DNA of 64,000 nucleotides from an uncultured Verrucomicrobiota bacterium (GCA_964519245.1 CAZFLK010000010.1:2612-66611); one strand, 5' to 3'; numbered from the stretch's first letter, positions 2,593-42,078 are shown. Notes: generated from the letters alone by a model not told the origin. Numbers and translations: made by a program.

Positions 2593-5127
<2,535 letters not shown>

Positions 5128-5135
5128 ACCACCCG

Positions 5136-8681: not shown

Positions 8682-8693
8682 CAGTCTGTCGGT

Positions 8694-12059: not shown

Positions 12060-12080
12060 GACATCTCCCCGCCGGCGGCC

Positions 12081-22609: not shown

Positions 22610-22633
22610 CCTGAATCCGGAAAGAACCGCGCC

Positions 22634-26208: not shown

Positions 26209-27303
26209 ATGAAGGAGTCGAGTAAGACCGGTCGCCTCGCTGTGCGACTCGCCATTTGCGCCGCTTTGCTGGTCTGGATTTTTCATGTCATTTTCGTCCA
26301 GGAAGGGCGGCTGGCGGTCGAGGCCCAGGGAGGGAGCTGGGACGGCATGACTCGCCAGGAGCAGTTTCAGGCTGCCTGGAGTTTGGGGCCTTCCGCAGTC
26401 TGGGGGACCCTGCGCGCGGTCAGCCCCTCCCTTTATGCGTTGTCGCTCCTGTTGGTGGGAGCGACGCTCGTCATAGGCGCCCGTCGGTGGCAGTTGGCTC
26501 TTCGCGAACAGGGCCTGAACCTCCCGTTTGCCCGCGCTTTGGAAATTTCGCTGATCGCGCATTTTTTCAATTCCTTTTTGCTGGGATCGACCGGCGGCGA
26601 TCTCCTGAAAGCCTTTTACGCCGCCCGGGAGACCCATCACAAGAAGACAGAGGCGGTGACGACGGTATTCGTGGACCGCCTGATCGGACTGTTTTCCATG
26701 CTGCTGTTCGCAGTCGCCTTTGCGGCGCCCCAAATTGGCGCCATCCGGGCGCATGAGTTTACAGGACTGGTCTTTCTCACCGTCCTGGGCATGCTGGGAG
26801 CGTGCGGGGTTCTGGTCTATGCCGCGTTCTGGGGCAGAGGGTCCGGCGGTGAGTCGTGGGTGGGAGGGTGGTTGCGGCGACTACCCCGGGGCGAGTATCT
26901 GGAACGTTCGTTGCTATCCTGCCGTATCTACGGCGGCAGGCCCCTGTTTCTGGTTCAGTCACTGGCGCTGTCAATGGCGCTGAACCTGTTCTGCGTGCTT
27001 CAGTTTCATGCGATCTCCCAAGGGCTAGGGTTGTCAATTCCTCTGGGATTATTGCTGTTTCTGGCGCCCGCAATCATTTGCATTTCAGCCCTGCCGATCA
27101 CCCCCAACGGGCTCGGTGTCCGCGAACATCTGTTCGTGGGCGCGCTTTCAGCCGCCGCAGTCGGCATCTCGGCCAAAGCGGCCCTGTCGCTTTCCCTGCT
27201 GGCTTATTCCGGCAGTTTGATCTGGAGCGTCATTGGTGGCGTTGTCTACGTGAATCTGAAGGAATCCAGACATCTTGACGAGGTGGCCAACGCCGGAACC
27301 TGA
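26209..27303 (+). CDS. Flippase-like / lysyl-phosphatidylglycerol-synthase-TM-type (UPF0104) membrane protein
   Basis: 364 aa, about 8 TM segments. The N-terminus MKESSKTGRLAVRLAICAALLVWIFHVIF and the FFNSFLLGSTGGDLLKAFY block are typical of this family. Confidence 0.75.
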   Translation: MKESSKTGRLAVRLAICAALLVWIFHVIFVQEGRLAVEAQGGSWDGMTRQEQFQAAWSLGPSAVWGTLRAVSPSLYALSLLLVGATLVIGARRWQLALREQGLNLPFARALEISLIAHFFNSFLLGSTGGDLLKAFYAARETHHKKTEAVTTVFVDRLIGLFSMLLFAVAFAAPQIGAIRAHEFTGLVFLTVLGMLGACGVLVYAAFWGRGSGGESWVGGWLRRLPRGEYLERSLLSCRIYGGRPLFLVQSLALSMALNLFCVLQFHAISQGLGLSIPLGLLLFLAPAIICISALPITPNGLGVREHLFVGALSAAAVGISAKAALSLSLLAYSGSLIWSVIGGVVYVNLKESRHLDEVANAGT

Positions 27304-27379: not shown

Positions 27380-28840
27380 ATGGATAAGATATTGTTGGTG
27401 GATGATGAGTCGGACGTCCTGTATTCGTTCAAACGGATATTTGATACCCCGGACATTGAGATCAGCACCGCGTCGAGCGGTGAGGCGGCGCTTGAGGCTA
27501 TTCCCGGGGTTAAGCCTCATCTGGTCATCATGGACGTGCGTATGGGCGGCATCAATGGGTTGGAAACATTGCGCCGGATTCGCCAACAAGATGGGAAACT
27601 TCCGGTAATCATGATGACGGCCTATGGCACAACCCAGACAGCCATCGAAGCCATGAAACTGGGCGCCTATGACTACCTGCTGAAACCGTTCGAAGTGCCC
27701 AAGCTCAAGGAGATCGTGCACGGCGCGTTGGACGCCTCCCGGGCCATGCGACAAGTTGTTTCCTACGAGCCCCTGCTTGAATCCGAGGATTACGATATCG
27801 GCATTGTGGGCCGCAGCGCGCCCATGCAGGACGTGTTCAAACTGATCGGCCAATTGGCCACATCGGACGCAACCTGCCTAATCACCGGGGAAAGCGGCAC
27901 TGGCAAAGAGTTGGTTGCCCGGGCGATCTATAGTCACGGACGCCGTTCGGAACAGCCCTTTCTGGCCATCAATTGCGCCGCGATCCCTGAGAACCTGTTG
28001 GAAAGTGAGCTTTTCGGCCACGAGAAGGGAGCCTTCACCGGGGCCAACACCCAACGCATTGGCAAGTTCGAACAATGCGACAAAGGCACCCTGTTCCTGG
28101 ATGAAATTGGGGATATGAGCCTGCCGACGCAGACCAAGATACTTCGAGTGCTTCAGTCCGGCGCCTTTGAGCGCGTGGGAGGCAACAAGCCGGTCAACGT
28201 TGACGTCCGAATCATCGCCGCCACAAACAAACCGCTCGACAAGGCAGTGGCGGAACGGGAGTTCCGCGAGGATTTGTTTTACCGCTTGAATGTCGTGCAA
28301 GTTCGCACCCCTCCGCTAAGGGAGCGGAGGGGCGACATACGCCTGTTGGTGAATTATTTCTTGAACAAGTTCGCGTCGGATTCCGGGCAACGGCCGAAAG
28401 CTATTCTCCCCGAGGTGATCACCCGCTTCGAGGAGTACGCTTGGCCGGGGAACGTGCGCGAGCTGGAGAACGCCGTACAGCGCGCCTTGGTCGTCAGCAA
28501 AGGTGACGCGATCATGCTCAATGATCTGCCCGATAATATTCGGGCGGGAGAACGGGTGATGCCGCTGTCCGAGCCGGAAGACGAGCAGGTCCAGGAACAC
28601 GGCGGGGAATCCACAACCCGTTCCGGCCTGGAGGATATCGCGCGGCAACTATTTGAGTGGGCTCGCGAAGACGCGGATCTGAAAATACTGCCCGCAGTGG
28701 AGCGCCAATTGATCATTCATGCGCTGAAGGATACCGGCGGCAACCAAGTCAAGGCGGCGAAATTGCTGGGAATCACCCGCGCAACGCTGCGAAAAAGGAT
28801 CGACAAATTCGAGATTCGACGCGAACTGGAAATCCGTTGA
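27380..28840 (+). CDS. Sigma-54-dependent response regulator (NtrC/PilR-type: REC - AAA+ - Fis HTH)
   Basis: REC domain (ILLVDDE..., acceptor D in VIMDVRM). AAA+ domain with GESGTGKE (Walker A), GAFTGA (sigma-54 contact loop), LFLDEIG (Walker B). C-terminal HTH (NQVKAAKLLGITRATLRKRI). Confidence 0.93.
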   Translation: MDKILLVDDESDVLYSFKRIFDTPDIEISTASSGEAALEAIPGVKPHLVIMDVRMGGINGLETLRRIRQQDGKLPVIMMTAYGTTQTAIEAMKLGAYDYLLKPFEVPKLKEIVHGALDASRAMRQVVSYEPLLESEDYDIGIVGRSAPMQDVFKLIGQLATSDATCLITGESGTGKELVARAIYSHGRRSEQPFLAINCAAIPENLLESELFGHEKGAFTGANTQRIGKFEQCDKGTLFLDEIGDMSLPTQTKILRVLQSGAFERVGGNKPVNVDVRIIAATNKPLDKAVAEREFREDLFYRLNVVQVRTPPLRERRGDIRLLVNYFLNKFASDSGQRPKAILPEVITRFEEYAWPGNVRELENAVQRALVVSKGDAIMLNDLPDNIRAGERVMPLSEPEDEQVQEHGGESTTRSGLEDIARQLFEWAREDADLKILPAVERQLIIHALKDTGGNQVKAAKLLGITRATLRKRIDKFEIRRELEIR

Positions 28841-28873: not shown

Positions 28874-31800
28874 TCATTCCACCAGCCGAATGCGGTAGAA
28901 GCGGGGTTCCGCGCCAGCGCTGTCGGTGTAAGTCATCTCGTCGCCGTCGCCGGAAAGCGTCGGCGACACCACGGTCCAATCGCCACCCGCCATCGAGGGG
29001 GAGCATTCAATGACATAGTTCTTGCCATCGACAGTCGGCCAACGAAGCGTAACGCGATCACCGGCAGCGCTCGGCCCGGCTCCTCGCATCCGGAGGGCCG
29101 ACGAGGAGTCATTCGGATGAGTGCCCGCACGATGCTCAGCCCAGTTCGGGATGCCGTCGCCATCAGCGTCGGCGTCCTCATGAGAAAGCAAATTGTTCAG
29201 CGTTCCGAAGTGACGCAAACGCCAGGTGTCAGGTATGCTGTCGCCCAAGGACGAATACGACCGATCTTTCATGGTCACCAACCCATCCCTGATTCGTTTC
29301 GGAAGGAGTCCATATCCGTTCGGTGAACCAGACGCATGCGCGAAACGCACGGCATATGCCGCATTCTGATCTACGCCCTCCGGCAAAGTAACCACCAGGG
29401 TTCCGATCAACGCCTCGCCGCTGATACCCGCCACCGAGGCGTCCAGCCAAATTCCGGCATAGTTCCAAGGCAGTGACTGCGGGTTGATGTCTGGCTCACC
29501 CAATCCCGCGGCATTGAAGGCCACCGGTTCCGTCAGCAGTGGTGCGCCATCAAGCGGCACGACACTGAGATTCAGCATCAAGGTCCGCAATGGGTAATCT
29601 CCTCTAACCTTGGCGGTGATCGGAATCAGCGCCTGATTGCCGTCCGGGCTCGGCATCGCGTCGCCAGCGACAAAATGGACGAAGGGCCTCTCCCCCGAAA
29701 GCGCGGGCGCGGGCGTATTCGCCCTGCGGGCCGGGCTCAAAGACTTCGCCGCAAGGTTGGCCAACAGGCTGTTGGTGTCTCCTCTGAACTGATTGGGCAC
29801 TTCCTGAACCATGCGAGCCCCTCCGGACCAGAATCGACGATACCACTTGAGGTTGGGGTCCAGCGAGCGCCGGAAGGTGACGAAAACATCGTCGATGTTC
29901 AAGGCCCCGTCGCCAAACATGATCGCGTCGATCGCGGCGTTATCCAAGCCGTCGAACGTCTGCGCGGCGCTGCCATCGGAAGAGTCCATGGCGTCAAAGA
30001 AGTCGCTCCCCGCGGGCGGCGCATTAACGCCGTAGATAGCCGATTGATAGACCTGTATAAGGTCGTTCACCAAGAGGTTCGTGTCGCCGAAATCGCCGGC
30101 GTTATACCATCCAAAGGGCATGACATCGCCCACCACGTAGCCGGGTTCTCCGACTGTGATCTCCTTGACGGCGCTGATGGGAGCGCCGCCCGCCAGAGCC
30201 CCGTTGGTTGGAGCGACAAGCAGCACATCCTGCTCGAGTCCGAAGACGGCGGAAGGTCGGGAGATGGCGGCGCGATACTTGTCGCCGACTGCGGCGGCCG
30301 CGGGAATCGTGATGCCATAAGCTCCGACCAACACCTTGCCCTCGCCGCCAAGGAACTGGTTGTTGTGGGCGCGGGAGAACGCGATCAGGTCATGGGTGGT
30401 GGTGTCATAAACCTGGTCGCCGCCAAGACGCTCCACATAGCCGACCAACAACTGATTCAAATCACCGCCAGTGACCGCCGTGATGTTGGTGACCAAGAGA
30501 TTGGTCAACCCGGTGCGAAATCGAGCCTGTTGGTTGGTGAAGGAGCGATCGACGGCGGTTATGGTGGGGCTCAACGGGACATAGACAGGCGGATCCGTCT
30601 CCGGGATCAACGCCTCCAAACGAGTTTGATACAACTGGGTTCCCGTCAATTTTGGAGCAGCGCCGAGGTTGGTGGAACTAAGCGAGAACTGCATTGCGTG
30701 AATGCTGACTTCGTTGAGCAGATCCAAGGTCACCGGGGCGTAGAATGTCTGTCCGGAAGCCGCCAGGAACTGACTGGAGCCCTCGCCCGAATCGAAGCCG
30801 AAGGTGATCTTGTTCGCGGAAAAATTGGACCTGGAAAACTCTCTGGTGGTGATGCCGCTGGGCTCGAAATTCTCGGCGTAGGCCCGAATCTTCACAGTCA
30901 GTGTGTCATTGGTCCCGAAATCGAGTGAGACGGAAGCGCCCCCGCTGATCGGCCCGAAGACATTGGCTGCCGTCGTCGCGGCGGCCGCCGTATCAGGCGG
31001 CTCGCTGAGGTCGAGGGTGTAGTACATCTGTGCGTTCGTCGTAATATTGTTCAACACGAACTGGGCGGCGTTATCGCCGGCGACGGAAGGATTCGCGGTT
31101 TTGAACTGGAATCGCGCAGACACGACATCGCTGGACATGCGATTATCGGCGAAACTACGCATTTTCACGGTAAGGTCCGGCTGGATCGGATCGACCAGGC
31201 GATCGGGAAAGGCAAATCCTCCATCCCAAACGGGAGGGCTTTGGTCGCCGTCGGCCGGATCAGGAACGGCGTTACTGAACGGGTCGGCCGGTGTCTGGCC
31301 GAACGTGTAGCGTGATTCCACCCCATCCTCGGCCTTGACCGCGAGGAAGACCTCATTGTTAAAAATGGACTGGACGACGGGATTGAAAACCGTGATGACG
31401 ACATTCGCCTCGTTGGTCATCCGCTCCAAGTAGCCAATTTCCGGGTTTTGCACCTTCGGGAGCGGTTCGGAAGTCTGGATGAGGCGCAACGCGCCACCGC
31501 TATCCACCGGACCTGCGGAATCAGCAACCAGGACGGTTCCGGCCCCGATGTCGGAGGCAAGGCCGATTGGCGCATTGAAGGACGCCGCGTCCATGCTGCC
31601 ATCCGCCCTTCCGGCGGTTCCCGCCATTCCCGCAACGGTCTCGACGCTGAAGACACCCAACGCGGAGTTCGTGTAGACCCGGCGAATCAGATTGTTGCCT
31701 GTATCGGCAACCAAAACGCCGCCGCTGGCGCTGAGGAAGACGACGCCTCGGGGTTGATTGAATTGCGCCGCACTCCCGACGAGTGAGTTCAGTGAGCCGG

Positions 31801-32488
31801 AAGTTCCATCGCCAACCGTCGCGATCAAGGACTTGGCGACAGGATCAATCAACTTGAGCTGGTGGTTGCGGGTATCCGTCACCCACAGATTCGTGTTTTG
31901 ATCGACGGCGATCGCATTCGGCTGAAAGAACCCCATGGCTCCGTCTGACACCGTGGTCACGTCGTTGGCCGTGTCGATCTTACGAATGGCATGGTTCAAT
32001 GAGTCCGCGACATAGATATTGCCTGCGGTATCGACGGCCAACCCGGTCGGAAACCGAAAACGCGCGTCCGCCGGAGTCATCGAATCCACGTTGCCAGCCA
32101 TTCCCTGGGCGCCGGCGATATTGGTCACGACACCAGAGAGGGAGACATATCGGATGAGGTGGTTCGCCGAGTCCGCGACCACCAATCCGTTCCGGGCCGA
32201 CACCAATCCCTGAGGGTCATTGAACGACGCAAAAATTCCCGTGCCGTTCGCGAAGCCTTCCTTGCCGGTGGCGTCGCCCGCCAAAATGCGAAGTTCGCCG
32301 GTGGCGGGGACGAATGCCTTGATCTGGTTCAGAGCCCGATCGGTCACATAGTAGGTCCCGTTGCCTGCGACGACGACGCTATTGGGTTCCAACAGGTCAT
32401 CAACGACCAGGGTATTGACCGACTGGGCGGAGGCCTGCCCGGTCAGCAGGCCGATGGCCGCGATACCCAGTAGTGTTTTCAACTTCAT
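28874..32488 (-). CDS. Giant secreted protein: NHL-type beta-propeller, chitobiase/Hex-C-like module, cohesin-like / dockerin-like / cohesin-like modules, TSP3-type repeat, C-terminal beta-sandwich
   Basis: 1204 aa with signal peptide MKLKTLLGIAAIGLLTGQASA. About 6 NHL-like blades (VADSANHLIRYV, VADSLNHAIRKI, VTDTRNHQLKLI, VADTGNNLIRRV...). MYYTLDLSEP. Cohesin-like FYAPVTLDLLNEVSIHAMQFSLS and LIPITAKVRGDYPLRTLMLNLSV. Dockerin-like YVVGDVMPFGWYNAGDFGDTNLLVNDL...GDGALNIDDVFVTFRRSL. Also DADADGDGIPNWAE, and it ends RFYRIRLVE. Confidence 0.75.
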   Translation of the reverse strand: MKLKTLLGIAAIGLLTGQASAQSVNTLVVDDLLEPNSVVVAGNGTYYVTDRALNQIKAFVPATGELRILAGDATGKEGFANGTGIFASFNDPQGLVSARNGLVVADSANHLIRYVSLSGVVTNIAGAQGMAGNVDSMTPADARFRFPTGLAVDTAGNIYVADSLNHAIRKIDTANDVTTVSDGAMGFFQPNAIAVDQNTNLWVTDTRNHQLKLIDPVAKSLIATVGDGTSGSLNSLVGSAAQFNQPRGVVFLSASGGVLVADTGNNLIRRVYTNSALGVFSVETVAGMAGTAGRADGSMDAASFNAPIGLASDIGAGTVLVADSAGPVDSGGALRLIQTSEPLPKVQNPEIGYLERMTNEANVVITVFNPVVQSIFNNEVFLAVKAEDGVESRYTFGQTPADPFSNAVPDPADGDQSPPVWDGGFAFPDRLVDPIQPDLTVKMRSFADNRMSSDVVSARFQFKTANPSVAGDNAAQFVLNNITTNAQMYYTLDLSEPPDTAAAATTAANVFGPISGGASVSLDFGTNDTLTVKIRAYAENFEPSGITTREFSRSNFSANKITFGFDSGEGSSQFLAASGQTFYAPVTLDLLNEVSIHAMQFSLSSTNLGAAPKLTGTQLYQTRLEALIPETDPPVYVPLSPTITAVDRSFTNQQARFRTGLTNLLVTNITAVTGGDLNQLLVGYVERLGGDQVYDTTTHDLIAFSRAHNNQFLGGEGKVLVGAYGITIPAAAAVGDKYRAAISRPSAVFGLEQDVLLVAPTNGALAGGAPISAVKEITVGEPGYVVGDVMPFGWYNAGDFGDTNLLVNDLIQVYQSAIYGVNAPPAGSDFFDAMDSSDGSAAQTFDGLDNAAIDAIMFGDGALNIDDVFVTFRRSLDPNLKWYRRFWSGGARMVQEVPNQFRGDTNSLLANLAAKSLSPARRANTPAPALSGERPFVHFVAGDAMPSPDGNQALIPITAKVRGDYPLRTLMLNLSVVPLDGAPLLTEPVAFNAAGLGEPDINPQSLPWNYAGIWLDASVAGISGEALIGTLVVTLPEGVDQNAAYAVRFAHASGSPNGYGLLPKRIRDGLVTMKDRSYSSLGDSIPDTWRLRHFGTLNNLLSHEDADADGDGIPNWAEHRAGTHPNDSSSALRMRGAGPSAAGDRVTLRWPTVDGKNYVIECSPSMAGGDWTVVSPTLSGDGDEMTYTDSAGAEPRFYRIRLVE

Positions 32489-32546
32489 GACGTTCTTTTA
32501 GTGGCTCCAGACCTTGTCTGGCGCGTTCTGCACTGCCGCCGCCCAA

Positions 32547-35500
32547 TCAGGGCTGCAGCCGGATGCGGTAAAAGCGCTGGTCGCCCGAGTTTTCGGCGAT
32601 AATTTCCTGCGCATTGCCGTCGCCATTGACGGTTCCAATCTCGGTCCAAGGTCCCGTGGCGGGGTTGTCCGAACATTCGACGACGTAGGTTTTTCCTGGC
32701 GCGGTGATCCATTCGAGCCGCAGGTTGCCAGACGGGTCGGGCGCAGCAAGTTTGGAGCCGATGAACTCCAACCGAGAGCGGATATTGGTCGGATCCGTGC
32801 CGGCGAGAAACTCCTTGAGGTTGGAAACGCCATCACCATCCGAGTCCATGTTGGCCGCGACCAGGGCGCGGTCAACCCGATTGAAGAAGCGGGTCAACCA
32901 TTCGTCGGAAACAGCCGGCTCGTCCGGCAACGCCTCCAGGATGCGAACTCTACCGCCAAAGGATTCAACCAAGGAAGCTCCCTCGTTGGAAAAGACGCCT
33001 GCGAGCCCAAACTTCAGACGATAGGCGGCGCCCTGCCCCGCCTGCTGCGGCGCCACGAAACTGATTGTTCCGATGACGGTTTCGCCGGACAGTTGCAGGC
33101 CCAACCAGCCTTTGCCCATCTCGTTCAGTCCCATGGGAATAGTTTGTCCGACCCCAATCCCCGCAGGAGTCCAAACGATCGGGCTCGTGAGCGCCGGAGC
33201 CGATTCTTCCGCAATCACCTTGGCGCGGAATCCGAGCGCCTCCACGGTCACGCCTTCCTTGACCTTGACCGTGACCGGCAAGGTGACGACTGAACCGGGT
33301 TGCGCATTCTCGACGCTGCCAGCCGAGATCTGGACAGACGTTGACCAGATATCGCCGGGAGCGGGTGGCGTCAGCGCGGACGCAGGCGTGTTGGGCAAGG
33401 CGGTGGTGTCGTTGGTGTGGACGCCGCCGGTGGACCAGGCGCGCACGAAGTTGTTGCCATCCTCCCGCAACGAGCGTTTTGAGATCAGCGCCCAGTCGGC
33501 GATGGTGATGACGCCGTCGCCTTCGGGACTGCCGCCGGCGTTCTCATCGGGATAGGCGTCCATGGCGTTGAAAACATCACTGAATGTGTAGGGCACCCGA
33601 ATACCGAGTGAGGCAAGGAAGGCGTTGTTGACATCGCTGTTCAGCAGGTCTCCGTTGCCGAACTGCCCGGCGTTATACCACGCGCCTGGCGAAGTATCGC
33701 CGACCACGTAGGCGATGTTCGTTACAAGGATGGTTCGATCCGCCATGGGCGCGAGCGTGACATCATCCTGCAAACCATCGGCCGTTCCGGAAGGATTCAT
33801 GACGCTGACGATGAACTTGTCGCCCACCACCGCGGTGTTGGGAATTTTTATCGAGAGCATCGCAACTGCGGCAAAGCTGGAGATATTGAAGTCGGATTGC
33901 CCCAGGCTGGAGACGCTGAGCAGACGGGCGGCGGCGTCGCTGCTTTCATTAACCACATAGGAAACCGTCTGCCCATCCATGGCCACGGGTCCCGCGACTT
34001 GAATGAAGTCGTTGGTTCCGGTCGCGAGGAAATCAAAACCTCCTGCGGGAACCCCCAAAGCGGGCGCGGCGTTGCCGGGATCCGGCTTGACGGAGACGCG
34101 GAATTGCAACGAGCGGAGGCTGTCATTGGTGTTCAGGTTGACAACCAACGGGACAATCGCCGTGGCGCCCACACCGGCCTGAATGTCCGAAGTGACGCCA
34201 ATCTGATTCACGGTCGAAGAGGCGCCCGCGACGTTGGTGCTGACGACATTGGTCCCGCTGAAGAGGAAAGCGCTGACTCGCAGCGCGGTCAGATCGCGCA
34301 GTGGTTCGAACCATTTGATGGTGCCTGTGCCGCCGCTCATCGCCACCCGGGTGTCGTTGGTGGTCACATCGGACCCGTCAGTGCGGAAGTAGACGTTCGT
34401 GCTCGAACTGGTGACCGTGATGTCGACGCCCATGGGGTAGTAGCCGGAGGTCGGGGAGAAGGCGATCGAAGGCGGGTTCGGCAGAGCGTCCGCGCCATCG
34501 CCGGAAGCGGCGCCGGCGGGGCCGGAGAGGCCTGTTCCAGTCGTCTCGCGAATGATGTTGTAGTAGAGTTCAGTGGACACCACCGTGCCATCGCCCAGCA
34601 CAGCGACGCCGGATGGCACGCGGGAGGAGGCCACGTCGCCCGCGGCATCTTCCCATCCCGGATGGATCTCAAACGACAACCCGGGAAACTGGGTTTCCAA
34701 CTCCAGCCATGTGGCCGGGTCAATGCCATAGAGCAGGCTGACTTCCCCGTCGGGAGCAATGGAGACCACCCGATGGTTCTGGGTGTCCGCGACCACAGCG
34801 ACATTGTCACCGCCATTGGCGACATGCATCGGAAAATTGAAGGAGGCCAGGGTCTTACTGCCCAACGTTCGTCCGGGAGCGCCCGTGCCGACTTCGTTCG
34901 TCAGCGCGCCGCTGGGAGCGAGGTATCGGATCATGTGGTTGCCAGTGTCAGAAATCACCAATGCGCCGTTGTCGAGCACGGCAATGCCTCGCGGGGAGGA
35001 TAATGCCGCACCCACCGTCGAACCGCCGGCGATCATGTCGGTGATGGTGATTGTGGATACGATTCCGCTGCTGACCTTCTTGAGGGCGCCTCCCAATTCC
35101 ACAACGTAGATATCAGATGACGCGTCCAGAGCCATTGCGGTGGGGGCTGTCAAGCCGACCGCGGCAAAGCCGAGAAAATTGGTGTTTTTGTCGTAACGGC
35201 GGATCATGCCGTCGCCCTGCGACAACACGTAGACGTTGGTGGCGGCGTCCACCTTCACATCGACCGGCGTGGTTCCGGCAGGGTAGAGGGCCACGGTCGA
35301 AACCGTCGACTTGTCCCGATCGAGCATCCGGACCCGCTCATTGAGCATGTCGGCGATGAAGAGCTTGGTTCCGCTGGGATCAGCGGCGATCGCCACTGGT
35401 TGATTGAATTGGGCGACATCACCGACGCCGTTGATGACCTCGCCGATCGTTTTTCCATCCCGGAAACCGGCGTAGGAATTGGTCGTCGTGCCGTTGGGCG

Positions 35501-35678
35501 AGCCCGCGATGGTAGTGACCGTGGCGGATGCGCCCTGAGCCAGGGCCGATGCCGCCCCGCCGATCAGCGCGATGGACGCAACGGCAATCGCGAGGCTCTC
35601 CCGCAGCGGGTTGCGACGGCCCGACCGACGGATGCCGCCTTTTCGGGATCTTGCGGTTGTTTTCAACATTGAAATCAT
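32547..35678 (-). CDS. Giant secreted protein, tandem paralogue of 28874..32488 (same module order)
   Basis: 1043 aa. Signal/anchor ...LAIAVASIALIGGAASALA. NHL-like blades (IADMLNERVRML, ISDTGNHMIRYL, VADTQNHRVVSI). VYFRTDGSD. Cohesin-like AIVPLVVNLNTNDSLRSLQFRVSV and VVTLPVTVKVKEGVTVEALGFRAKV. Dockerin-like YVVGDTSPGAWYNAGQFGNGDLLNSDV...EGDGVITIADWALISKRSL. Also DSDGDGVSNLKEF, and it ends RFYRIRLQP. Confidence 0.75.
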   Translation of the reverse strand: MISMLKTTARSRKGGIRRSGRRNPLRESLAIAVASIALIGGAASALAQGASATVTTIAGSPNGTTTNSYAGFRDGKTIGEVINGVGDVAQFNQPVAIAADPSGTKLFIADMLNERVRMLDRDKSTVSTVALYPAGTTPVDVKVDAATNVYVLSQGDGMIRRYDKNTNFLGFAAVGLTAPTAMALDASSDIYVVELGGALKKVSSGIVSTITITDMIAGGSTVGAALSSPRGIAVLDNGALVISDTGNHMIRYLAPSGALTNEVGTGAPGRTLGSKTLASFNFPMHVANGGDNVAVVADTQNHRVVSIAPDGEVSLLYGIDPATWLELETQFPGLSFEIHPGWEDAAGDVASSRVPSGVAVLGDGTVVSTELYYNIIRETTGTGLSGPAGAASGDGADALPNPPSIAFSPTSGYYPMGVDITVTSSSTNVYFRTDGSDVTTNDTRVAMSGGTGTIKWFEPLRDLTALRVSAFLFSGTNVVSTNVAGASSTVNQIGVTSDIQAGVGATAIVPLVVNLNTNDSLRSLQFRVSVKPDPGNAAPALGVPAGGFDFLATGTNDFIQVAGPVAMDGQTVSYVVNESSDAAARLLSVSSLGQSDFNISSFAAVAMLSIKIPNTAVVGDKFIVSVMNPSGTADGLQDDVTLAPMADRTILVTNIAYVVGDTSPGAWYNAGQFGNGDLLNSDVNNAFLASLGIRVPYTFSDVFNAMDAYPDENAGGSPEGDGVITIADWALISKRSLREDGNNFVRAWSTGGVHTNDTTALPNTPASALTPPAPGDIWSTSVQISAGSVENAQPGSVVTLPVTVKVKEGVTVEALGFRAKVIAEESAPALTSPIVWTPAGIGVGQTIPMGLNEMGKGWLGLQLSGETVIGTISFVAPQQAGQGAAYRLKFGLAGVFSNEGASLVESFGGRVRILEALPDEPAVSDEWLTRFFNRVDRALVAANMDSDGDGVSNLKEFLAGTDPTNIRSRLEFIGSKLAAPDPSGNLRLEWITAPGKTYVVECSDNPATGPWTEIGTVNGDGNAQEIIAENSGDQRFYRIRLQP

Positions 35679-35724
35679 GGCTCGGAGAGCTGTTTTCAGG
35701 CCAACCGGCGCGGCTGGCCCCGGT

Positions 35725-37335
35725 TTATTTGCCCTGGTTCAACAAGTGAGCCGGCTTTCCGCGGTCAATCATCTTGGAATTCTCACGCCCGGCGCCATCC
35801 CAAGCCTGCGGGGCTTCGCTGGAACGCAGCGAGTTACGCATGAAATCACTGGGCGAGTATTGGTAATCATAATCCTGCACAATGGTCGGCGTGATGAAGA
35901 TGATCAGATTGGCCTTGGTTTTCTGTTTGGACTCGCGGCGAAACAGCAAACCGAGCCCGGGAATGTCACCCAAGAGCGGCACCTTGGTGTATTGGTCGCT
36001 TTCCGTGTTGCTCATCAAACCACCCATCACCAGCGTGTTGCCATTAGGGATCTCCACGGATGTTTCGATTCGACGAATCGCATAAACGTTGGCTTCGAAG
36101 ACTTCGCCGGCGATGGTTTGAGTGTCTTTGGAATCGATATTGGAGACCTCGGGCACCACGGTCATGTAGATGTTGCTGCTGGCCGAGACCCGCGGAGTCA
36201 CCTCGAGGATCGTGCCAAGGTTGGTGTAGGTCACCGAAGCGGCCGCCGGGGTGTTGGCGGAACCGGGGGTCACTTCAAAAATCGGGAAGGCCCGAGTGAC
36301 TTCCAGTCGCGCAGTCTGATTGTCCTTGGTCACGGTCCTGGGGGTCGCAACCACGCGGGTGTCCGCTTCCGTGTTCAGGAATGAGAGGGTGGCGCTGACG
36401 CCATCCGCATTGAGGAACGCGGTGGCGGGGCTCCAACCCGAGAGCGTGTTGAGTGAAAGTCCGCCATTGCCAAGGGTGGTCACGAGGTCCGTGGCGGAGG
36501 TTGAACCGGCCGTGCGGGTGGTGGTGATCTGATTGCCGCCCGGCGTGGTGAAGGTCGAGGTGCTCGTGGCGCCCGGGCGGGAGGTCGTGGTCGTTCCTGT
36601 CGTGTTTCCGTTACCGAAGACGACGCGTTGGTTGGCGAGCGTTCCGGACCAATCGACGCCGCGAATGGCGGTCGGGTTCATGGATGTTTCGATCACCTGC
36701 GCCTCGATGAGGACCTGCTTGGTCACGATGTCCAATTTCTCGATCAGGTCCTTGATCGCTTCCTGCTCATCCTCGGTGGCGATGACAACCAACTGGCTCG
36801 TACGGTAGTCGGGAATCACGGATCCGCGCTCGGAGATGCTGGCCGTGATGGCCGCAACCAGGTTGGTGGGGCTCGAGTTCTTGAGCTGCACGATCTTCGT
36901 CACCAACGGAGGAAGGGCGGCCGGGTCTTTGATGGTCACCCGGGCAATGCCGGTCTTGAGATTCGGCGTCATCTGCAGACCGTAGTTGTCCAAAATCGTC
37001 AACAAGGCGCCTTCCGCGCTGACATTCTCGAAGCGCACGGAAATGACGGTCGGCGGCAACTGCGTTCCATCCGGCGCCATCTTCGGAGCGGTCACCTCCG
37101 GCGCGAAGACGAAGTTGATCCCGGCCTGGCGCGCCAACATGCTGACGACGTCGGTGAGCGGGGTGTCTTCGAACACGATGCTGGGAATGACCTCCGCGTC
37201 ATCCATCGCCACTCCGACTTCGATTGCAGCCGGCGTTGACGGATCAGCGGAATCTGAGGCCTGGCCCTGTGCCGACGCCGCTGGGAGCCATACGACAAGC
37301 CCGGCAGCAAGGAGGATTGCAAGTTTCGTTTTCAT
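35725..37335 (-). CDS. pilQ: Secretin (PilQ/GspD family outer-membrane channel)
   Basis: Signal peptide MKTKLAILLAAGLVVWLPAASA. N0/N1-like domains (TPLTDVVSMLARQAGINFVF; IVQLKNSSPTNLV...EDEQEAIKDLIEKLD). Secretin core VLIEAQVIETS...VPLLGDIPGLGLLFRRESKQKTKANLIIFITPTIV. Confidence 0.88.
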   Translation of the reverse strand: MKTKLAILLAAGLVVWLPAASAQGQASDSADPSTPAAIEVGVAMDDAEVIPSIVFEDTPLTDVVSMLARQAGINFVFAPEVTAPKMAPDGTQLPPTVISVRFENVSAEGALLTILDNYGLQMTPNLKTGIARVTIKDPAALPPLVTKIVQLKNSSPTNLVAAITASISERGSVIPDYRTSQLVVIATEDEQEAIKDLIEKLDIVTKQVLIEAQVIETSMNPTAIRGVDWSGTLANQRVVFGNGNTTGTTTTSRPGATSTSTFTTPGGNQITTTRTAGSTSATDLVTTLGNGGLSLNTLSGWSPATAFLNADGVSATLSFLNTEADTRVVATPRTVTKDNQTARLEVTRAFPIFEVTPGSANTPAAASVTYTNLGTILEVTPRVSASSNIYMTVVPEVSNIDSKDTQTIAGEVFEANVYAIRRIETSVEIPNGNTLVMGGLMSNTESDQYTKVPLLGDIPGLGLLFRRESKQKTKANLIIFITPTIVQDYDYQYSPSDFMRNSLRSSEAPQAWDGAGRENSKMIDRGKPAHLLNQGK

Positions 37336-37378
37336 GAATTCAGTTTGGCTTGTTAAAGAAATACGCTTCGACGCAAGC

Positions 37379-38002
37379 TTAGTTGCCGATGGGTTTCATC
37401 GGCAGCTTCAAGGGGCGAACCTCGTCCTTGTTGTCAATTTTCAGCGTCACACCTTTGGAGGACACCGAGACACATTCCAAGCGGACCATGCGCTGGCCGC
37501 CTTCGATGTGGTTGGGCACCAACACCATGCGCCATTCGCCGGGCGCAAAATAGTAATTCTTGACCGAGGTGCCGATGGTCGCCATTGGCCGACTGCCGCC
37601 GATAACAGCCCTCAAAGTCAGATCATCAAACGGATCCGGCGGGGGCGGGGGCGCGGTCGACTTCTCCTTCTCTTCCTGCTCCTTTTTCAGCCGCTCCATT
37701 TCAGCCAACTCCTCCGGAGTCGGTCCTTTCGGAATCGGATCGCGTCGCTTTGAAGCAGGGAAAAAGGGATCGACGCCCTCCTTGGGTGATTTGTCGCGCG
37801 GTTCGGAAAGGAAGACGGATTCGGGAATCGTGAACGCCCCACCCTCAACTTCGGCTTCGGCTTCAGGTTTCGCATCGCTGTCAGGCGCGTCCTGGGCGGC
37901 AACAACCCCGGTGAGGGCGAAGACGGCGGCGGCGAATCCGATACTGCCAAAGATTGAGCGCGCGGAGCTTTGCGTGAAGAACTTGGGTTTCATGCTTGTC
38001 AT
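37379..38002 (-). CDS. PilP-like pilus/secretion assembly protein (hypothetical)
   Basis: Signal/anchor, a Pro/Glu-rich linker with DPF motifs, and a C-terminal small beta domain (LTLRAVIGGSRPMATIG...YFAPGEW...VRLECVSVSSKGVTLKID). It sits in the PilP position between pilO and the secretin. Its ATG overlaps the pilO stop (ATGA). Confidence 0.5.
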   Translation of the reverse strand: MTSMKPKFFTQSSARSIFGSIGFAAAVFALTGVVAAQDAPDSDAKPEAEAEVEGGAFTIPESVFLSEPRDKSPKEGVDPFFPASKRRDPIPKGPTPEELAEMERLKKEQEEKEKSTAPPPPPDPFDDLTLRAVIGGSRPMATIGTSVKNYYFAPGEWRMVLVPNHIEGGQRMVRLECVSVSSKGVTLKIDNKDEVRPLKLPMKPIGN

Positions 38003-38598
38003 TCTCCTTCCGCTTCCTCGACCGGCTTGATCAGGGCAACGAGTTCCATCGAAAAGGAAAGCTTCTCAGATACCTCACCTGACTCCGATTCTCCCATTGG
38101 CTGCAAGGTCACGTTCTGGACCCGGATGTAGGGATGCTCGTTTTCAAAGGTCTTGATGTAGGAGCCCAGATCGTGGAAATGTCCGGTTCCGGCGACGCGA
38201 AACTTGGCGGCCTCGTAGGGGAATTCCGGAATGGCGCCGATCGTCACCCGCTGTTCCCTGCCGACGGAAGGGATTTCAACGTCGAATTGCTTGTGCTCGG
38301 ACTTGAATTTGTTCAGGAGCAGGTTGATCCAGAGAAATATATCCCCCTCGGCCATCTGGTCCTCAATCTCGGTCAGGCGAGCCTTGACCGCGTCCATGTC
38401 GGCATTGAATTGATCCTCTTTCGCAATCAACGTCTCCGCTTGGGCTTTCTTGTCGCCGTACTCGGTCTTGATGGTCTCGTTTTCGACCATCTTGGCCCGT
38501 TGAGGACTGATGACCAACATGTAGGTCGCCACGACCAGCATCGCGGCCACCAGGCCGACCATGACCATTTGCTGCTGCTTTTGTGTGAGATTGCTCAT
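37999..38598 (-). CDS. pilO: PilO-like type IV pilus biogenesis protein
   Basis: Single TM (MVMVGLVAAMLVVATYMLVI), a coiled coil, then a ferredoxin-like C-terminal domain (FRVAGTGHFHDLGSYIKTFENEHPYIRVQNVTLQP). The ATG at 38598 overlaps the pilN stop (ATGA). Confidence 0.7.
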   Translation of the reverse strand: MSNLTQKQQQMVMVGLVAAMLVVATYMLVISPQRAKMVENETIKTEYGDKKAQAETLIAKEDQFNADMDAVKARLTEIEDQMAEGDIFLWINLLLNKFKSEHKQFDVEIPSVGREQRVTIGAIPEFPYEAAKFRVAGTGHFHDLGSYIKTFENEHPYIRVQNVTLQPMGESESGEVSEKLSFSMELVALIKPVEEAEGE

Positions 38599-39251
38599 GG
38601 TTCCCGGGTTACGCTGGGGTAACGGCACTGGATGACGATGGCCCGGTAGGTTCCGCTTCCATCAGCGGCGTCAATCGGGTCGGACAGGGTCTGCAGCGAG
38701 ACGCCGTCGCGCTTACGCAACCTGCCGTCGAACCGATCCGCAATTTTTGCCATAAACTCGTTGTATTGACCGGCGCTGTCGTCGGCATAAATTTGGAAGG
38801 AGACATGCTCGATGGATTTGGCCGGAATCCCTTTCTCGTTGGTGTCAGGGGGCGGCGGAATGGCCGCATACTCCTCAAACCGCTGTTCCATCACGAACTG
38901 GGTGAAACGAATGCCGTCAAGCACGCAGAACTGCAACTCGTTCAGGACCGGGGCGCAAAGAAAACGGTTGGTTGCGAGACGTTGCAAGGAATTGATGTTG
39001 GACTCAAGGCGACCGGTCATGGCCCGAATCTCCTTCAATTTGAGCTCCTTGTCCTTGATGTCCTCATAAGCCTGCCGAATCGCATTCGCTTCCGAGGTCG
39101 AGGCCTTCACCCTCATCGTGTTGAATCCGGCGAAGACAATCACAACGGCAACCACGGCGCCAGCAATGATGATGGCGCGTTTGAGCGGATCCTTGCGGCG
39201 CAACTCTTCAGCCGCCTGCTCTTCCGCCAGTAGATTGATCCTGATTGGCAT
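38595..39251 (-). CDS. pilN: PilN-like type IV pilus biogenesis protein
   Basis: MPIRINLLAEE... (the conserved INLL start), a single TM (AIIIAGAVVAVVIVFAGF), and a periplasmic coiled-coil/ferredoxin-like part. Confidence 0.8.
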   Translation of the reverse strand: MPIRINLLAEEQAAEELRRKDPLKRAIIIAGAVVAVVIVFAGFNTMRVKASTSEANAIRQAYEDIKDKELKLKEIRAMTGRLESNINSLQRLATNRFLCAPVLNELQFCVLDGIRFTQFVMEQRFEEYAAIPPPPDTNEKGIPAKSIEHVSFQIYADDSAGQYNEFMAKIADRFDGRLRKRDGVSLQTLSDPIDAADGSGTYRAIVIQCRYPSVTREP

Positions 39252-39254
39252 GAT

Positions 39255-40319
39255 TCAAAAGCTCATCGCTGCGGCCCCGACGGCAACCGTAAGTTGTGGC
39301 GCAATCTGTTCGATTTCACCCATCCGCTGAGGCGCAATGTCCAAAGTAAAGGAGCCGGCTGGATTCCAACTCTTGCAGGGCACCATCAATTCCGACTGCA
39401 GCGCCTGAATGATGTGATCCGAGATGGAAGAACCTCCCGAGAAGAACACCTGGCTGACGGTCTTGTCCTGCTGATGTTCAAAAAAGTCGATGGAGGCGCG
39501 CAACTCCCGGCCGAGCGGCGTCAACAGGGGCTGGATCGTCTCCTCCACTTCCTGAGGCATGCCCACCTTGATGCCTTCCGCCTCCGCCTGACTGACTCCC
39601 AACGATTCGGCGATGCCCGTCGTCAGCTTGGCGGCGCCAAAACCAACGACACGACTGAGGCTCAACTCCCCCAGCATCATGATGCTGATGAACGAATGCT
39701 TGTAGCCGAAATCAACCAGGGCCACGACCTCCTTCTCGAAGACTTCCGGCATTGCCTGCTCGAAGGCGTTGGCCGGTTGCACCAGGCTGGTGGTGACCAA
39801 ATCGGCGGTCAACCCCGCCTGCCGCGCGGCGGCTTTCAGGTTTTCGACGTGCTCACGCTTGGCTCCGCCGACCAGAGCCGGTTGATTGCCTCCGCTTGCG
39901 GCGCCGCCCTCAGCGGCGGCGTCCGCCCCGCCCTGGAAGTGGCAATCGAACAGATGATCCTTGAGCTCCTGCTGGAGAAACTTCTTCGAATTGACCTTCA
40001 GGAGAGGCAGCAACTGGGAGAGGGGCGCGTTGGGAATTTCAGCTGGACGCAACACGGAGTCCCCGGGACCAATGGCGAGGGTCACCTGCTTCGTCTTGCC
40101 GCCGCCCATGTCGTCCATGATCATCTTGAGATGATCCGCGAGTTTTTCCGCGGACAAGGTGCGGTCGTAGACCGGCGCATCCTTCAACACGAAATCGTTG
40201 AGGGAAAATCCCCCCCCTTTCCGTTGTACAGACACCGCCTTGGTAACCCGTGTTCCCAAATCGATGGCGACAACGTGATCCTTGGTTTGGGAGCCTTTGC
40301 TCAGAAAGGAAAACGCCAT
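39255..40319 (-). CDS. pilM: PilM (actin-like ATPase-fold type IV pilus assembly protein)
   Basis: The ATG at 40319 (MAFSFLSKGSQTKDHVVAIDLGTRVTKAV...) gives the typical PilM start. Also VDFGYKHSFISIM and a FFSGGSS block (FtsA/PilM fold). The stop lies 3 nt before the pilN start. Confidence 0.88.
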   Translation of the reverse strand: MAFSFLSKGSQTKDHVVAIDLGTRVTKAVSVQRKGGGFSLNDFVLKDAPVYDRTLSAEKLADHLKMIMDDMGGGKTKQVTLAIGPGDSVLRPAEIPNAPLSQLLPLLKVNSKKFLQQELKDHLFDCHFQGGADAAAEGGAASGGNQPALVGGAKREHVENLKAAARQAGLTADLVTTSLVQPANAFEQAMPEVFEKEVVALVDFGYKHSFISIMMLGELSLSRVVGFGAAKLTTGIAESLGVSQAEAEGIKVGMPQEVEETIQPLLTPLGRELRASIDFFEHQQDKTVSQVFFSGGSSISDHIIQALQSELMVPCKSWNPAGSFTLDIAPQRMGEIEQIAPQLTVAVGAAAMSF

Positions 40320-40434
40320 GACGAAAAATTTCTTAAACAGTTCGATTTCCAAATGCAAGTTGCAAACTGACAATTTCTTACCTATGCGACACCCCTCCGC
40401 AAAGCTGGTTCGGCGCCACCTCCGTCCCGCAATG

Positions 40435-42078
40435 TCAATCCTTCTCATACATTTTTTTCAGGGTCTCCGGCCTGACGCCCAAATAGTAGAGAATCGTCAC
40501 TCGCCACATGCGAAAGTAGGTGCGCGCCGGGCCAAGCTTCCTGAAGCGACGGGCAGAAGTGAGAACCGTGGCTCCGGCCAAAGCCAGGCGCCCCGCCCCG
40601 TTCAACAACTCGCACATTCGAAACTCCTCCATCAGCGGCATGTCCGGCGCGCCGCCCACGCTTTCCAATACGTTGCGCCGGACAAACAGTCCCTGATCAC
40701 CCAGGATGCGTCGAAATAGAAACAATCGCGTCGCGCAACGCCAACGCGAGCCAGCCATCATCCACATCCCGTCACGAAATTCCTTCCAGAAGCCGCCCCC
40801 AACAACCGTGGGATCCCTCAAGGCCCGCAAGACAGCCGCCCCGGCGTCCGGGGGCGCCCAGGTGTCCGCATGCAGGATCAACACCACGTCACCGGTCGCG
40901 ACCTGCGCTCCCGCGCGAATTTGCTTCCCCCGCCCCGCGCCCGTTTGAACGAGTCGACACCCCGCCTCGCCGGCCAACGTCGCCGTCTGGTCCGAACTTC
41001 CGCCATCGGCCACGATGATCTCCTCCACTTCGGGGACGGCGCGCAGCCGCCTCAGGGTTTCAGGCAAGGCGCTTTCCTCATTCCAGGTCGGAATCACCAC
41101 CGAAATGCCGCGCGGCGCCGACCGCGAGGAAACCTTCGTCATGCGAGCGGTTTCCCGCCACAACCAAACGCCGCCAAAAACTGCCCAGCAAACATAACAT
41201 CCCGCAAAGGACAGCGAGGCGGCAACCGCATCGGATCCGGAAATGCCATACCACCCCAGCAGGGTCATCGCAGCGGCCTCCCTGAGCCCGACGCCCGCGA
41301 CCGAAGGCATCGAGGTCAACACGGTAATCGCCGGAAAGACCCAGACCATCCGGAGCAGCGCCCCCGACTCCGGATTGACCGCCTTGAAACAGGCGGCCAA
41401 CGCGGCGCCCATGCTCGCCTGAACGAGGAATCCCAGGAACAACCCCCTTAGGGCGCGCCGAGGATGCCTCCAAAGCGTTCTGACCGCGTCTAGGAAATGG
41501 CCCCATACCCGGCCGACCGGGGACCCGGGCAGCACGCGCGCCACCCCCATGACCAACGCAGCGAGGCCTCCCGCCGCCACACAACCACCCAACAACCATG
41601 CGCCAGTGATCCCGCCGAACGCGCCCGCCGCGCCGGAAATCGTGGCGCCCGCTCCCACAAGGATCAGCAACCCCGCCAGGCCGAGCAATCGATCCAGAGG
41701 CGCAGCCGCAATGACCCGGGACAACGGCATCCGGAACCAGCGGCTGTATAGCGCCGATCTCGCCAAGTCCCCGGCGACCGGTCCGCACAGGAGCAGGTTG
41801 AAGAAACGCCCAATGTGCGCCAGGCGGATCGTGGCTCCCGGGTGAACGTCGCCGCCGGTCAGCGACAGCATGAGATGCAACCGCGCGGCCGCCAACAGCC
41901 CGCCCAAGCCAAAGAACATCAACCCCGCGAGCAACCACCCCAAATCCGCCCCCGCCAGCGCGGTCATCAATTCCGCTCCGCGGACACGACGCAACGCCGC
42001 CCAAAGGAAGCCACAGGAGACCAAGACCGAGAGCGTCGTCTTCCACGAAAACCGGAATCTGCTGGGAAAGGCGTCCAC
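40435..42078 (-). CDS. Fusion protein: flippase-like/LPG-synthase-TM (UPF0104) membrane domain + family-2 glycosyltransferase
   Basis: 547 aa with a GTG start. About 320 aa of polytopic membrane domain, then GT2 blocks: VVIPTWNEESALPETL, IIVADGGSSDQT, VVLILHADTW, GDQGLFVRRNVLESVGGAPDMPLMEEF, LTSARRFRKLG. Confidence 0.8.
   Translation of the reverse strand: MDAFPSRFRFSWKTTLSVLVSCGFLWAALRRVRGAELMTALAGADLGWLLAGLMFFGLGGLLAAARLHLMLSLTGGDVHPGATIRLAHIGRFFNLLLCGPVAGDLARSALYSRWFRMPLSRVIAAAPLDRLLGLAGLLILVGAGATISGAAGAFGGITGAWLLGGCVAAGGLAALVMGVARVLPGSPVGRVWGHFLDAVRTLWRHPRRALRGLFLGFLVQASMGAALAACFKAVNPESGALLRMVWVFPAITVLTSMPSVAGVGLREAAAMTLLGWYGISGSDAVAASLSFAGCYVCWAVFGGVWLWRETARMTKVSSRSAPRGISVVIPTWNEESALPETLRRLRAVPEVEEIIVADGGSSDQTATLAGEAGCRLVQTGAGRGKQIRAGAQVATGDVVLILHADTWAPPDAGAAVLRALRDPTVVGGGFWKEFRDGMWMMAGSRWRCATRLFLFRRILGDQGLFVRRNVLESVGGAPDMPLMEEFRMCELLNGAGRLALAGATVLTSARRFRKLGPARTYFRMWRVTILYYLGVRPETLKKMYEKD

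Follow-up and report, generated by a model that had tools for sequence, protein, structure and literature searches.

Results

Organisation of the locus

We analysed a stretch of 64,000 nucleotides of DNA (64 kb, in the following the window) from an uncultured Verrucomicrobiota bacterium (GCA_964519245.1 CAZFLK010000010.1:2612-66611), in which seven genes of the same direction occupy positions 28874-40319 of the minus strand. They encode, in this order, PilM, PilN, a PilO-like and a PilP-like protein, a PilQ-type secretin and two giant proteins, which we call G1 and G2 (Table 1). Upon re-reading of the sequence, the gene order, open reading frames (ORFs) and junction lengths that a preliminary description of the window had reported were reproduced exactly: from pilM to G2, the junctions consist of a gap of 3 nt, two successive ATGA overlaps and gaps of 43, 46 and 58 nt. 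Since codon-position GC content is that of coding sequence (GC3 of approximately 0.70-0.77 in all seven ORFs), these ORFs can be regarded as real genes.

Table 1. Coordinates of the operon, of further features of the window and of the pseudopilin-like cassettes found in related loci (the latter numbered within their own loci).
Feature	Position	Strand	Length	Description
pilM	39255-40319	-	354 aa	counted from ATG at 40319; cytoplasmic and actin-like; belongs to the alignment complex of type IV pili
pilN-like	38595-39251	-	218 aa	bitopic inner-membrane protein, MPIRINLL N-terminus, one transmembrane segment
pilO-like	37999-38598	-	199 aa	counted from ATG at 38598
pilP-like	37379-38002	-	207 aa	signal/anchor segment, Pro/Glu-rich linker, C-terminal beta domain
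secretin	35725-37335	-	536 aa	signal peptide, N0-like domain, one Secretin_N (N1), secretin domain
G1 giant	32547-35678	-	1043 aa	
G2 giant	28874-32488	-	1204 aa	
Upstream motif TTTGCAACTTGCATTTGG	40349-40366	-		approximately 30-50 nt 5' of the pilM ATG; candidate promoter/operator
Sigma-54-like element	40404-40418	-		TGGCGC-N5-CAGC
NtrC/PilR-class sigma-54-dependent response regulator	27380-28840	+		convergent with G2; Response_reg 4e-31, Sigma54_activat 2e-73, HTH_8 2e-15
LPG_synthase_TM protein	26209-27303	+		beside the sigma-54 regulator
rpsU (ribosomal protein S21)	25744-25941	+	65 aa	previously unlisted ORF
Second LPG_synthase_TM protein	40435-42078			fused to a GT2 glycosyltransferase
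VTC-domain, CotH-kinase and DUF4956 genes	8007-12872	-		
PSCyt1/PSCyt2/PSD1 and DUF1501 gene pair	2374-6572	+		
PSCyt1/PSCyt2/PSD1 and DUF1501 gene pair	20297-23950	+		
Pseudopilin-like cassette, L007	11608-15080			3' of the giants
Pseudopilin-like cassette, L023	16154-19002			3' of the giants
Pseudopilin-like cassette, L027	18344-21699			3' of the giants
Pseudopilin-like cassette, L018	658-3353			5' of pilM

Conservation of the linkage between secretin and giants

Scanning one genome per bacterial species yielded 76 distinct loci, all of them from Verrucomicrobiota, mostly labelled Limisphaerales or Pedosphaera and mainly represented by metagenome-assembled genomes (MAGs). The position of the secretin was assessed by tblastn on the same strand in those loci that offer at least 4.5 kb of upstream sequence (n=57), and a secretin was found directly upstream of a G1-type giant in 56 of them, while a G2-type giant follows 3' of G1 in 59 of 60 testable loci. 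An arrangement which recurs in 56 of 57 related loci is beyond chance. The lone exception (L060) is a second, unlinked G1-type copy from a MAG that also carries the full cluster (L045). Two G-type paralogues follow the secretin in 50 loci, three in 16 and four in 3.

Full-length homologues of G1, approximately 35 in number, show identities of 36-77%, and every retrieved context reads PilM-N-O-(P)-secretin and then giants, with G1 identities of 61% in L002, 39% in L003 and L004, 36% in L005 and 41% in L007. The linkage is kept in L084, which was found via P0119, a 1168-aa giant with 26% identity to G1, and it is also present in metagenome contigs at 26-61% identity. Where called-gene tables were inspected, the junctions measure 22-58 nt. 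A pilM homologue lies 5' of the secretin in most of the related loci that reach that far (tblastn), and the positions of pilN and pilO are conserved as well. The genetic coupling of PilMNOPQ-type genes with giants, which the preliminary description had claimed for the single locus, is therefore maintained down to protein identities of 26-36%.

The giants diverge further than their neighbours, with G1 at approximately 36-45% identity across loci where PilM is at approximately 45-63% and the secretin at approximately 42-59%. A G-type giant is broken into several ORFs in L005 (18637-22647) and in L003 (13045-16591), which suggests frameshifts or pseudogenisation and hence turnover within the giant family. 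In L005, an IS110 transposase and a fragment of a reverse transcriptase lie close to the split giant. It should be noted that eight of the MAG records carrying the cluster (L016, L021, L023, L027, L046, L048, L065 and L079) have titles that name Klebsiella, Akkermansia muciniphila, Bifidobacteriaceae or Proteobacteria, which are apparent mislabels.

Expression and upstream region

The sequence is present in salt-marsh, estuary and seawater metagenomes as well as in three salt-marsh metatranscriptomes. Contigs from the three metatranscriptome runs cover the region from 28.73 to 40.43 kb nearly continuously, at a depth of mostly 1-8 and with one empty bin in one run. RNA coverage begins at 40309-40435 on the 5' side and ends at approximately 28734-28750 on the 3' side. 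On either flank, RNA depth is 0 in all three runs for the upstream gene (40.8-42.0 kb) and for the LPG-synthase gene (26.1-27.2 kb), and it is near zero over most of 12-22 kb and 44-55 kb. The seven genes are thus co-expressed in situ. Two junctions had been singled out beforehand for a transcript check, 35679-35724 between secretin and G1 and 32489-32546 between G1 and G2, and both are crossed by metatranscriptome contigs (35644-36437 and 32472-32928, respectively). A scan for terminator-like hairpins gave counts at chance level, and none was detected in either of these junctions. In the same runs, RNA depth of the cluster is similar to that of rpsU and at least as high as that of EF-G, which ranks the cluster with the most strongly expressed regions of the window in situ.

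Upstream of pilM, the motif TTTGCAACTTGCATTTGG constitutes a candidate promoter or operator. Its core CTTGCAWTT is invariant in six aligned loci, down to relatives with approximately 42% G1 identity. The sigma-54-like element further upstream (TGGCRC-N5-CAGC, with TGGCAC in L008) is shared by the window and its two closest relatives only. A sigma-54 promoter of pilM, tied to the neighbouring regulator, was considered and is at most tentative, the element being absent from L002, L012 and L020.

Two side observations were made in the RNA data. Contigs of the runs X6 and X18 diverge from the window at approximately 38009 and at 38050-38052, at the pilO/pilP junction, and continue into long unmatched tails; these breaks most likely stem from a second strain present alongside, whose pilP linker has diverged, and not from RNA processing. 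Outside the operon, the strongest RNA signal, with a depth of up to 13, belongs to rpsU, which lies inside an apparent intergenic gap of 750 nt. An interpretation of this peak (25.6-26.0 kb) as non-coding RNA was rejected for this reason, and no Rfam or tRNA match was found in the window. In the distant relative L084, an S21 gene is found in this neighbourhood as well.

Frame and channel proteins

PilM passes the Pfam PilM_2 cutoff of 27 bits with 83 bits (2.2e-23) and additionally matches FtsA at 1e-8. Compared to the TIGR01175 pilM model, it aligns over residues 13-350 (7.9e-26) with 90.9 bits, below the cutoff of 133. The secretin exceeds the Pfam cutoffs for Secretin (3.2e-43, 147.7 bits) and Secretin_N (2.1e-11, 44.3 bits), matches STN at 1.9e-4 and is devoid of AMIN domains. 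The identities originally assigned to PilM and to the secretin are hence confirmed at the level of Pfam families. The alignment to the TIGR02515 model of PilQ runs over the whole model (5-428 of 428) and scores 193 bits against a cutoff of 284, while for the GspD model TIGR02517 the C-terminal half alone could be aligned, at 212 bits and below a cutoff of 351. Since the PilQ model is covered completely and the GspD model by half, both remaining below their trusted cutoffs, the architecture appears similar to that of type IVa pili (T4aP), but divergent. A type II secretion system (T2SS) of the Gsp type could be ruled out, as GspD is half matched and below cutoff, PilM and PilN are separate proteins in place of a GspL fusion, and GspE, GspF and GspG are missing from the operon.

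The remaining three proteins are supported by less direct evidence. PilN begins with MPIRINLLAEE, followed by the hydrophobic segment IIIAGAVVAVVIVFAGF, and thereby displays the INLL start that had been read from the sequence before, together with one transmembrane segment. No match above cutoff was obtained for PilN among the Pfam or NCBIfam profiles, and weak matches were found to Amuc_1101_fam, in its PilN-like part (E=0.0019), and to GspL, in its C-terminal part (E=0.07). For the PilO-like protein all matches are below cutoff as well, with NCBIfam GspM/XpsM at 1e-4, Pfam T2SSM_b at 0.02 and T2SSM at 0.04. The PilP-like protein has no direct match to Pfam or NCBIfam families, and its sequence contains no lipobox cysteine, whereas PilP proteins are in most cases lipoproteins. 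An ORF fills the PilP position in 52 related loci, and a profile of the C-terminal domain retrieved the HR domain of GspC as top match in the PDB, at values that are not significant (2lnv_A, E=0.19; 3oss_C, E=1.5). The names PilN, PilO and PilP proposed earlier are thus backed by gene position, the INLL motif and synteny, but profile support for them is weak or sub-threshold.

The giants G1 and G2

Starting from a signal peptide, G1 consists of an NHL beta-propeller (approximately residues 60-400), an Ig-like domain, a cohesin-fold domain (approximately 492-652), a dockerin-like segment with Ca loop and helix (approximately 650-745), a second cohesin-like sandwich (approximately 782-913), a TSP3 repeat (945-965) and a C-terminal beta-sandwich (approximately 986-1041), ending in RFYRIRLQP. 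G2 is a paralogue with the same module order, 32% identical to G1 across the C-terminal ~490 aa (BLASTP, E=1e-49), and shows an additional weak match to Fn3_assoc in Pfam. Both giants carry Sec-type signal peptides as read from the sequence, with the cleavage site of G2 at …GQASA/QS.

NHL domains had been claimed for both giants, and this assignment holds: at a Pfam cutoff of 20 bits, G1 scores 36 bits (5.7e-9) and G2 100 bits over three repeats (2.9e-29), and the G1-family profile matches NHL propellers in the PDB at 1e-48, by which other matches are swamped. By sequence, no PDB match was found for the C-terminal half of G1. The AlphaFold2 (AF2) model of residues 401-1043, computed with 31 homologues, reached a mean predicted local distance difference test score (pLDDT) of 82; in it, beta-sandwiches follow one another in a row that two helical segments interrupt. 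Foldseek comparison of this model to the PDB retrieved cohesins (4uyp_C, 6kgd_A and the 5nrk-series/5nrm_A) at a probability of 1.0 and TMt of 0.60-0.72, alongside generic multi-sandwich proteins. The best match to Pfam Cohesin stays below the gathering cutoff (E=0.012, 16.2 versus 24.1 bits). The presence of at least one cohesin-fold domain in G1 is thus supported by the predicted structure; the cohesin assignment of the preliminary description stands at the level of the fold, but not at that of sequence families.

For the dockerin named in the same description, the evidence is suggestive. Residues 650-745 of G1 contain one canonical calcium (Ca) loop, the second (SPEGDGVITIAD), the other loop being degenerate, and no Pfam match to Dockerin_1 was found in the giants. 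With a family profile of this segment, the top PDB match is a type I dockerin (5nrk_B, E=0.83), and when the segment was modelled on its own (pLDDT 62), dockerins accounted for 8 of 16 Foldseek matches (best E=0.85, probability 0.57), none of them significant. These leads point in the direction of a dockerin, but none reaches significance. A further Ca-binding repeat type is represented by the TSP3_bac match of G1, which is slightly below the Pfam cutoff (1.4e-4).

The C-terminal RFYRIRLQP beta-sandwich has no Pfam name, and an exhaustive hidden Markov model search located it in 13,772 cluster representatives, where tandem copies are frequent and the position is often internal or at the extreme C-terminus. 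It was considered as a lineage-specific sorting tag and rejected as such, since it is a generic module; it may nonetheless act as a C-terminal signal. Neither giant matches the PilY1/Neisseria_PilC family of Pfam at E<=0.01.

Fibre and motor genes in the window and in relatives

The preliminary description had stated that pilins, ATPases of the PilB/PilT/GspE type, the PilC/GspF platform and a prepilin peptidase are absent from the 64 kb, and motif and Pfam scans agree with this statement. A six-frame scan of the window revealed neither a pilin N-terminus with class-III signal nor a GspE-type Walker A motif, and none of the pilin, ATPase, platform and prepilin-peptidase families of Pfam was found among the ~45 other ORFs of the window.

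In four related species, a pseudopilin-like cassette directly adjoins the cluster (Table 1). It consists of two small proteins of approximately 155 and 205 aa with AFTL.E-type N-termini, a large protein of 525-600 aa and often a fourth protein of approximately 214 aa. In L027, a 118-aa gene product of the cassette, which resembles PilA/GspG, passes the cutoff of the prepilin N-terminal model TIGR02532. The large cassette protein (584 aa) has 1366 homologues, and it seems better conserved than the giants, since the best 120 of these homologues are 51-88% identical. It is found away from any secretin in three further contexts (L085, L086 and L087), which is why the split layout looks usual in this lineage. 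When pilin and ATPase genes were sought through cassette-protein homologues on the same long contigs as clusters, solely the already known L023 and L027 were recovered. As side observations, the large protein displays local similarity to cyanobacterial HpsA (4e-14), and L085 and L087 contain two tandem cassettes each, one of them including a DUF7305 protein.

Split loci are the norm for T4aP, where the pilMNOPQ operon lies apart from the pilin and ATPase genes. To our knowledge, the sole role of PilM is to link the alignment complex (PilN/PilO) to the PilB/PilT/PilC motor, and a machine without motor is hard to rationalise when PilM is kept. With cassettes abutting the cluster in four relatives and widespread in the lineage, and with PilM implying a cytoplasmic motor, the term pilin-less from the preliminary description fits the window and not the machine, which is probably not pilin-less as a whole.

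Neighbouring genes

The sigma-54-dependent regulator next to G2 is found at the same position in L002, L003 and L084 and altogether in 10 of the 47 loci with enough downstream sequence. Together with the LPG_synthase_TM gene it is retained beside the cluster in a subset of loci, and because this subset includes the distant L003 and L084, the arrangement looks ancestral. The regulator is an orphan with no histidine kinase nearby and is barely expressed in the three metatranscriptomes. The second LPG_synthase_TM gene lies just upstream of pilM.

The other ORFs of the window, approximately 45 in number, are unrelated to the cluster and encode PSCyt/PSD1/DUF1501 proteins, sulfatases, EF-G, transporters and similar proteins. 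Among them, a group on the minus strand comprises a VTC-domain protein, a 1121-aa protein with CotH-kinase and beta-helix/NosD domains and a DUF4956 membrane protein. The two PSCyt/PSD1 and DUF1501 gene pairs are a hallmark of Planctomycetota and Verrucomicrobiota genomes, which fits the assignment of the window to Verrucomicrobiota.

Discussion

Proposed function

The cluster described here is real, conserved and expressed. We propose that it represents part of a type IV filament machine which is complete, its genes being split over the genome, and that the lineage-specific giants are partners exported through the secretin, either as cargo or as pilus-associated adhesins, and we hold this interpretation to be somewhat more probable than its opposite. 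The host is an uncultured marine bacterium (salt marsh or estuary) of the Verrucomicrobiota, from the Limisphaerales group. PilM in the cytoplasm, PilN and the PilO-like and PilP-like proteins in the inner membrane and periplasm and the PilQ-type secretin in the outer membrane would constitute stator and channel of T4aP architecture, while pilins, PilB/PilT-type ATPases, the PilC platform and the prepilin peptidase would be encoded elsewhere in the genome, as is the T4aP habit. G1 and G2, co-transcribed with the machine, would be exported by the Sec pathway, fold in the periplasm and leave via the secretin. This last step may take place in two ways: the giants could sit on the pilus tip or prime it, with an adhesin function similar to that of PilY1, or they could be T2SS-like cargo pushed by a short pseudopilus, like SslE or PulA. 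The first way is supported by the position of the giants next to minor-pilin-like genes in some relatives and by their beta-propeller and Ca sites. Outside the cell, the NHL propellers would bind ligands, and the Ca-binding dockerin-like and TSP3 segments might, together with the cohesin-fold domains, join G1, G2 and the extra paralogues into a surface adhesin or scaffold. Such a cohesin-dockerin assembly is speculative, because the dockerin identity is not established.

Several points weigh against export of the giants by a split filament machine. Neither PilM nor the secretin reaches the trusted cutoff of its TIGRFAM model, so that the machine is in any case divergent. Genes for pilins, ATPases, platform or peptidase are absent from the 64 kb and, in most of the 76 loci, from the 10 kb on either side of the G1 match. 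In sequence, the giants resemble neither PilY1 nor any T2SS substrate known so far, and the dockerin, with a best E of 0.83-0.85, a probability of 0.57 and a pLDDT of 62, is likewise not secured. Metatranscriptome contigs carry no strand information and may include some DNA; the zero depth of the flanks argues against DNA contamination.

The constant position of the giants immediately 3' of the secretin gene, at an RNA depth similar to that of the secretin, could also be understood if they were structural accessories of the secretin, forming a ring, cap or anchor at its periplasmic or outer face in the manner of TsaP, FimV or pilotins of other T4aP systems. Envelope scaffolds often contain beta-propellers and strings of Ig-like domains; moreover, AMIN domains are missing from the secretin, and the window shows no gene for a pilotin or TsaP. 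We nevertheless consider such a role unlikely. The giants diverge much faster than the machine proteins and occur as two to four paralogues, which fits repertoires of cargo or adhesins better than machine parts of fixed stoichiometry, for which the pseudogenised copies in L003 and L005 would be odd as well. NHL, TSP3 and cohesin-like modules are, in addition, typical of extracellular adhesins.

It is similarly improbable, in our view, that the linkage is transcriptional only, with the giants as ordinary adhesins that use another export route and share the promoter as members of a surface-attachment regulon. A gene order that is kept in 56 of 57 loci across deep divergence and with tight junctions rarely persists without functional or assembly coupling, and neither an autotransporter barrel, type I secretion system genes, PEP-CTERM nor a lipobox was found in the window that would indicate such a route. 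On the other hand, passage of the giants through the secretin is itself hypothetical, their C-terminal beta-sandwich is the generic module with 13,772 cluster representatives, and one unlinked G1-type copy (L060) exists. A truly pilin-less machine, in which the giants themselves, joined head to tail by Ca-dependent cohesin-dockerin contacts, would be the fibre or scaffold that PilMNOPQ, aided by no more than a short pseudopilus for priming, threads through the outer membrane, is very unlikely: the lack of pilin, ATPase and platform genes in the window and beside most related clusters, the cohesin-fold domains and dockerin-like segment of each giant and the constant presence of at least two paralogues would suit it, but it would leave the machine with no energy source or assembly platform although PilM is kept, and it conflicts with the adjacent and widespread pseudopilin cassettes, with the split loci usual for T4aP and with the unproven dockerin.

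In most descriptions, type IV filament machines polymerise pilins. A lineage-wide and highly expressed operon of frame, channel and two to four giants would point to a new class of adhesins that are pilus-associated or secretin-exported, and G1 and G2 are named candidates for the partners of secretins in the Planctomycetes-Verrucomicrobia-Chlamydiae (PVC) bacteria. Verrucomicrobiota are abundant in water and soil and genetically little studied, and the giants may help to explain particle attachment of these polysaccharide degraders. Should cohesin-dockerin contacts prove true, cellulosome-type assembly would extend to a Gram-negative pilus context; should the machine be pilin-less after all, a type IV filament apparatus would have been converted to the handling of giant modular proteins, as dedicated exporter and assembler of a non-pilin surface polymer.

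Comparison with known systems

In the literature covered, which was incomplete so that a prior mention is possible, we found no description of a cluster of secretin and NHL giants. The closest counterpart is the pilMNOPQ operon of T4aP, as in Pseudomonas aeruginosa, Myxococcus xanthus and Thermus thermophilus, with which the locus shares the order M, N, O, P, secretin, a separate PilM, the INLL of PilN, a PilQ model matched end to end and the location apart from pilin and ATPase genes. In contrast to these operons, the secretin gene is followed by two to four conserved genes for NHL/cohesin-like giants; AMIN domains are missing from the secretin and a lipobox from the PilP-like protein, and PilM and PilQ score below the TIGRFAM cutoffs.

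T2SS with built-in cargo offer a second parallel. The E. coli T2SS-beta operon includes sslE (yghJ/sslE-pppA-yghG-gspC-M), and pulA of Klebsiella adjoins pulC-O, so that in both cases the operon of a secretin-based exporter contains or adjoins the gene of the very large secreted or surface-displayed protein which it exports. The locus differs from them in having PilM/N/O/P and not GspC/L/M, with no GspE, F, G or O in the operon, and in placing the putative cargo genes downstream of the secretin as paralogous sets.

Among the adhesins of T4aP, PilY1 is a large protein that combines a beta-propeller with an EF-hand-like Ca site. Similar to the PilY1/PilC tip adhesins, the giants are secreted proteins of more than 1000 aa with a beta-propeller, EF-hand-like Ca sites and a genetic tie to type IV pilus genes, and in L007, L023 and L027 they lie directly beside minor-pilin-like genes, as pilY1 does. 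However, their propeller is N-terminal and of the NHL type, that of PilY1 C-terminal and of the PilY1 type, with no sequence similarity between the two, and the giants are tied to the secretin operon and not normally to a minor-pilin operon.

Regarding the modules of the giants, the hypothetical "planctosome" (PMC6461901), a non-cellulosomal assembly, was proposed to comprise Ca-dependent surface complexes of large secreted PVC proteins with cohesin, dockerin and TSP3. It differs from the locus described here by its peptidase partners and the absence of a tie to a secretin or pilus operon; in our case, the cohesin is assigned at fold level and the dockerin is unproven.

Within the same phylum, the Amuc_1098-Amuc_1102 cluster of Akkermansia muciniphila likewise contains a secretin, a PilM/FtsA-like gene and lineage-specific secreted proteins, and weak cross-matches connect PilM, PilN and the secretin of the window to Amuc families. 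Membership of the Amuc_1098, Amuc_1099 and Amuc_1101 families was rejected, since the scores (94.6 versus 750, 18.1 versus 50 and 42.4 versus 650 bits, respectively) are far below the NCBIfam equivalog cutoffs. The relationship to Akkermansia raised in the preliminary description therefore extends to shared component types, but not to shared families. The Amuc_1098 model is longer, with 805 positions compared to the 536 aa of the secretin described here; Amuc_1101 appears to be a fusion, since its model (608 positions) spans PilM-like and PilN-like parts; a TSP3-type repeat is the sole similarity to Amuc_1099; and no NHL giants are reported there. The proteins of the Akkermansia cluster are highly abundant and expressed (PMC5332112), which the high expression of the cluster analysed here mirrors. 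The locus could thus provide a comparative handle on the Akkermansia pili-like cluster, which is much studied and mechanistically unclear.

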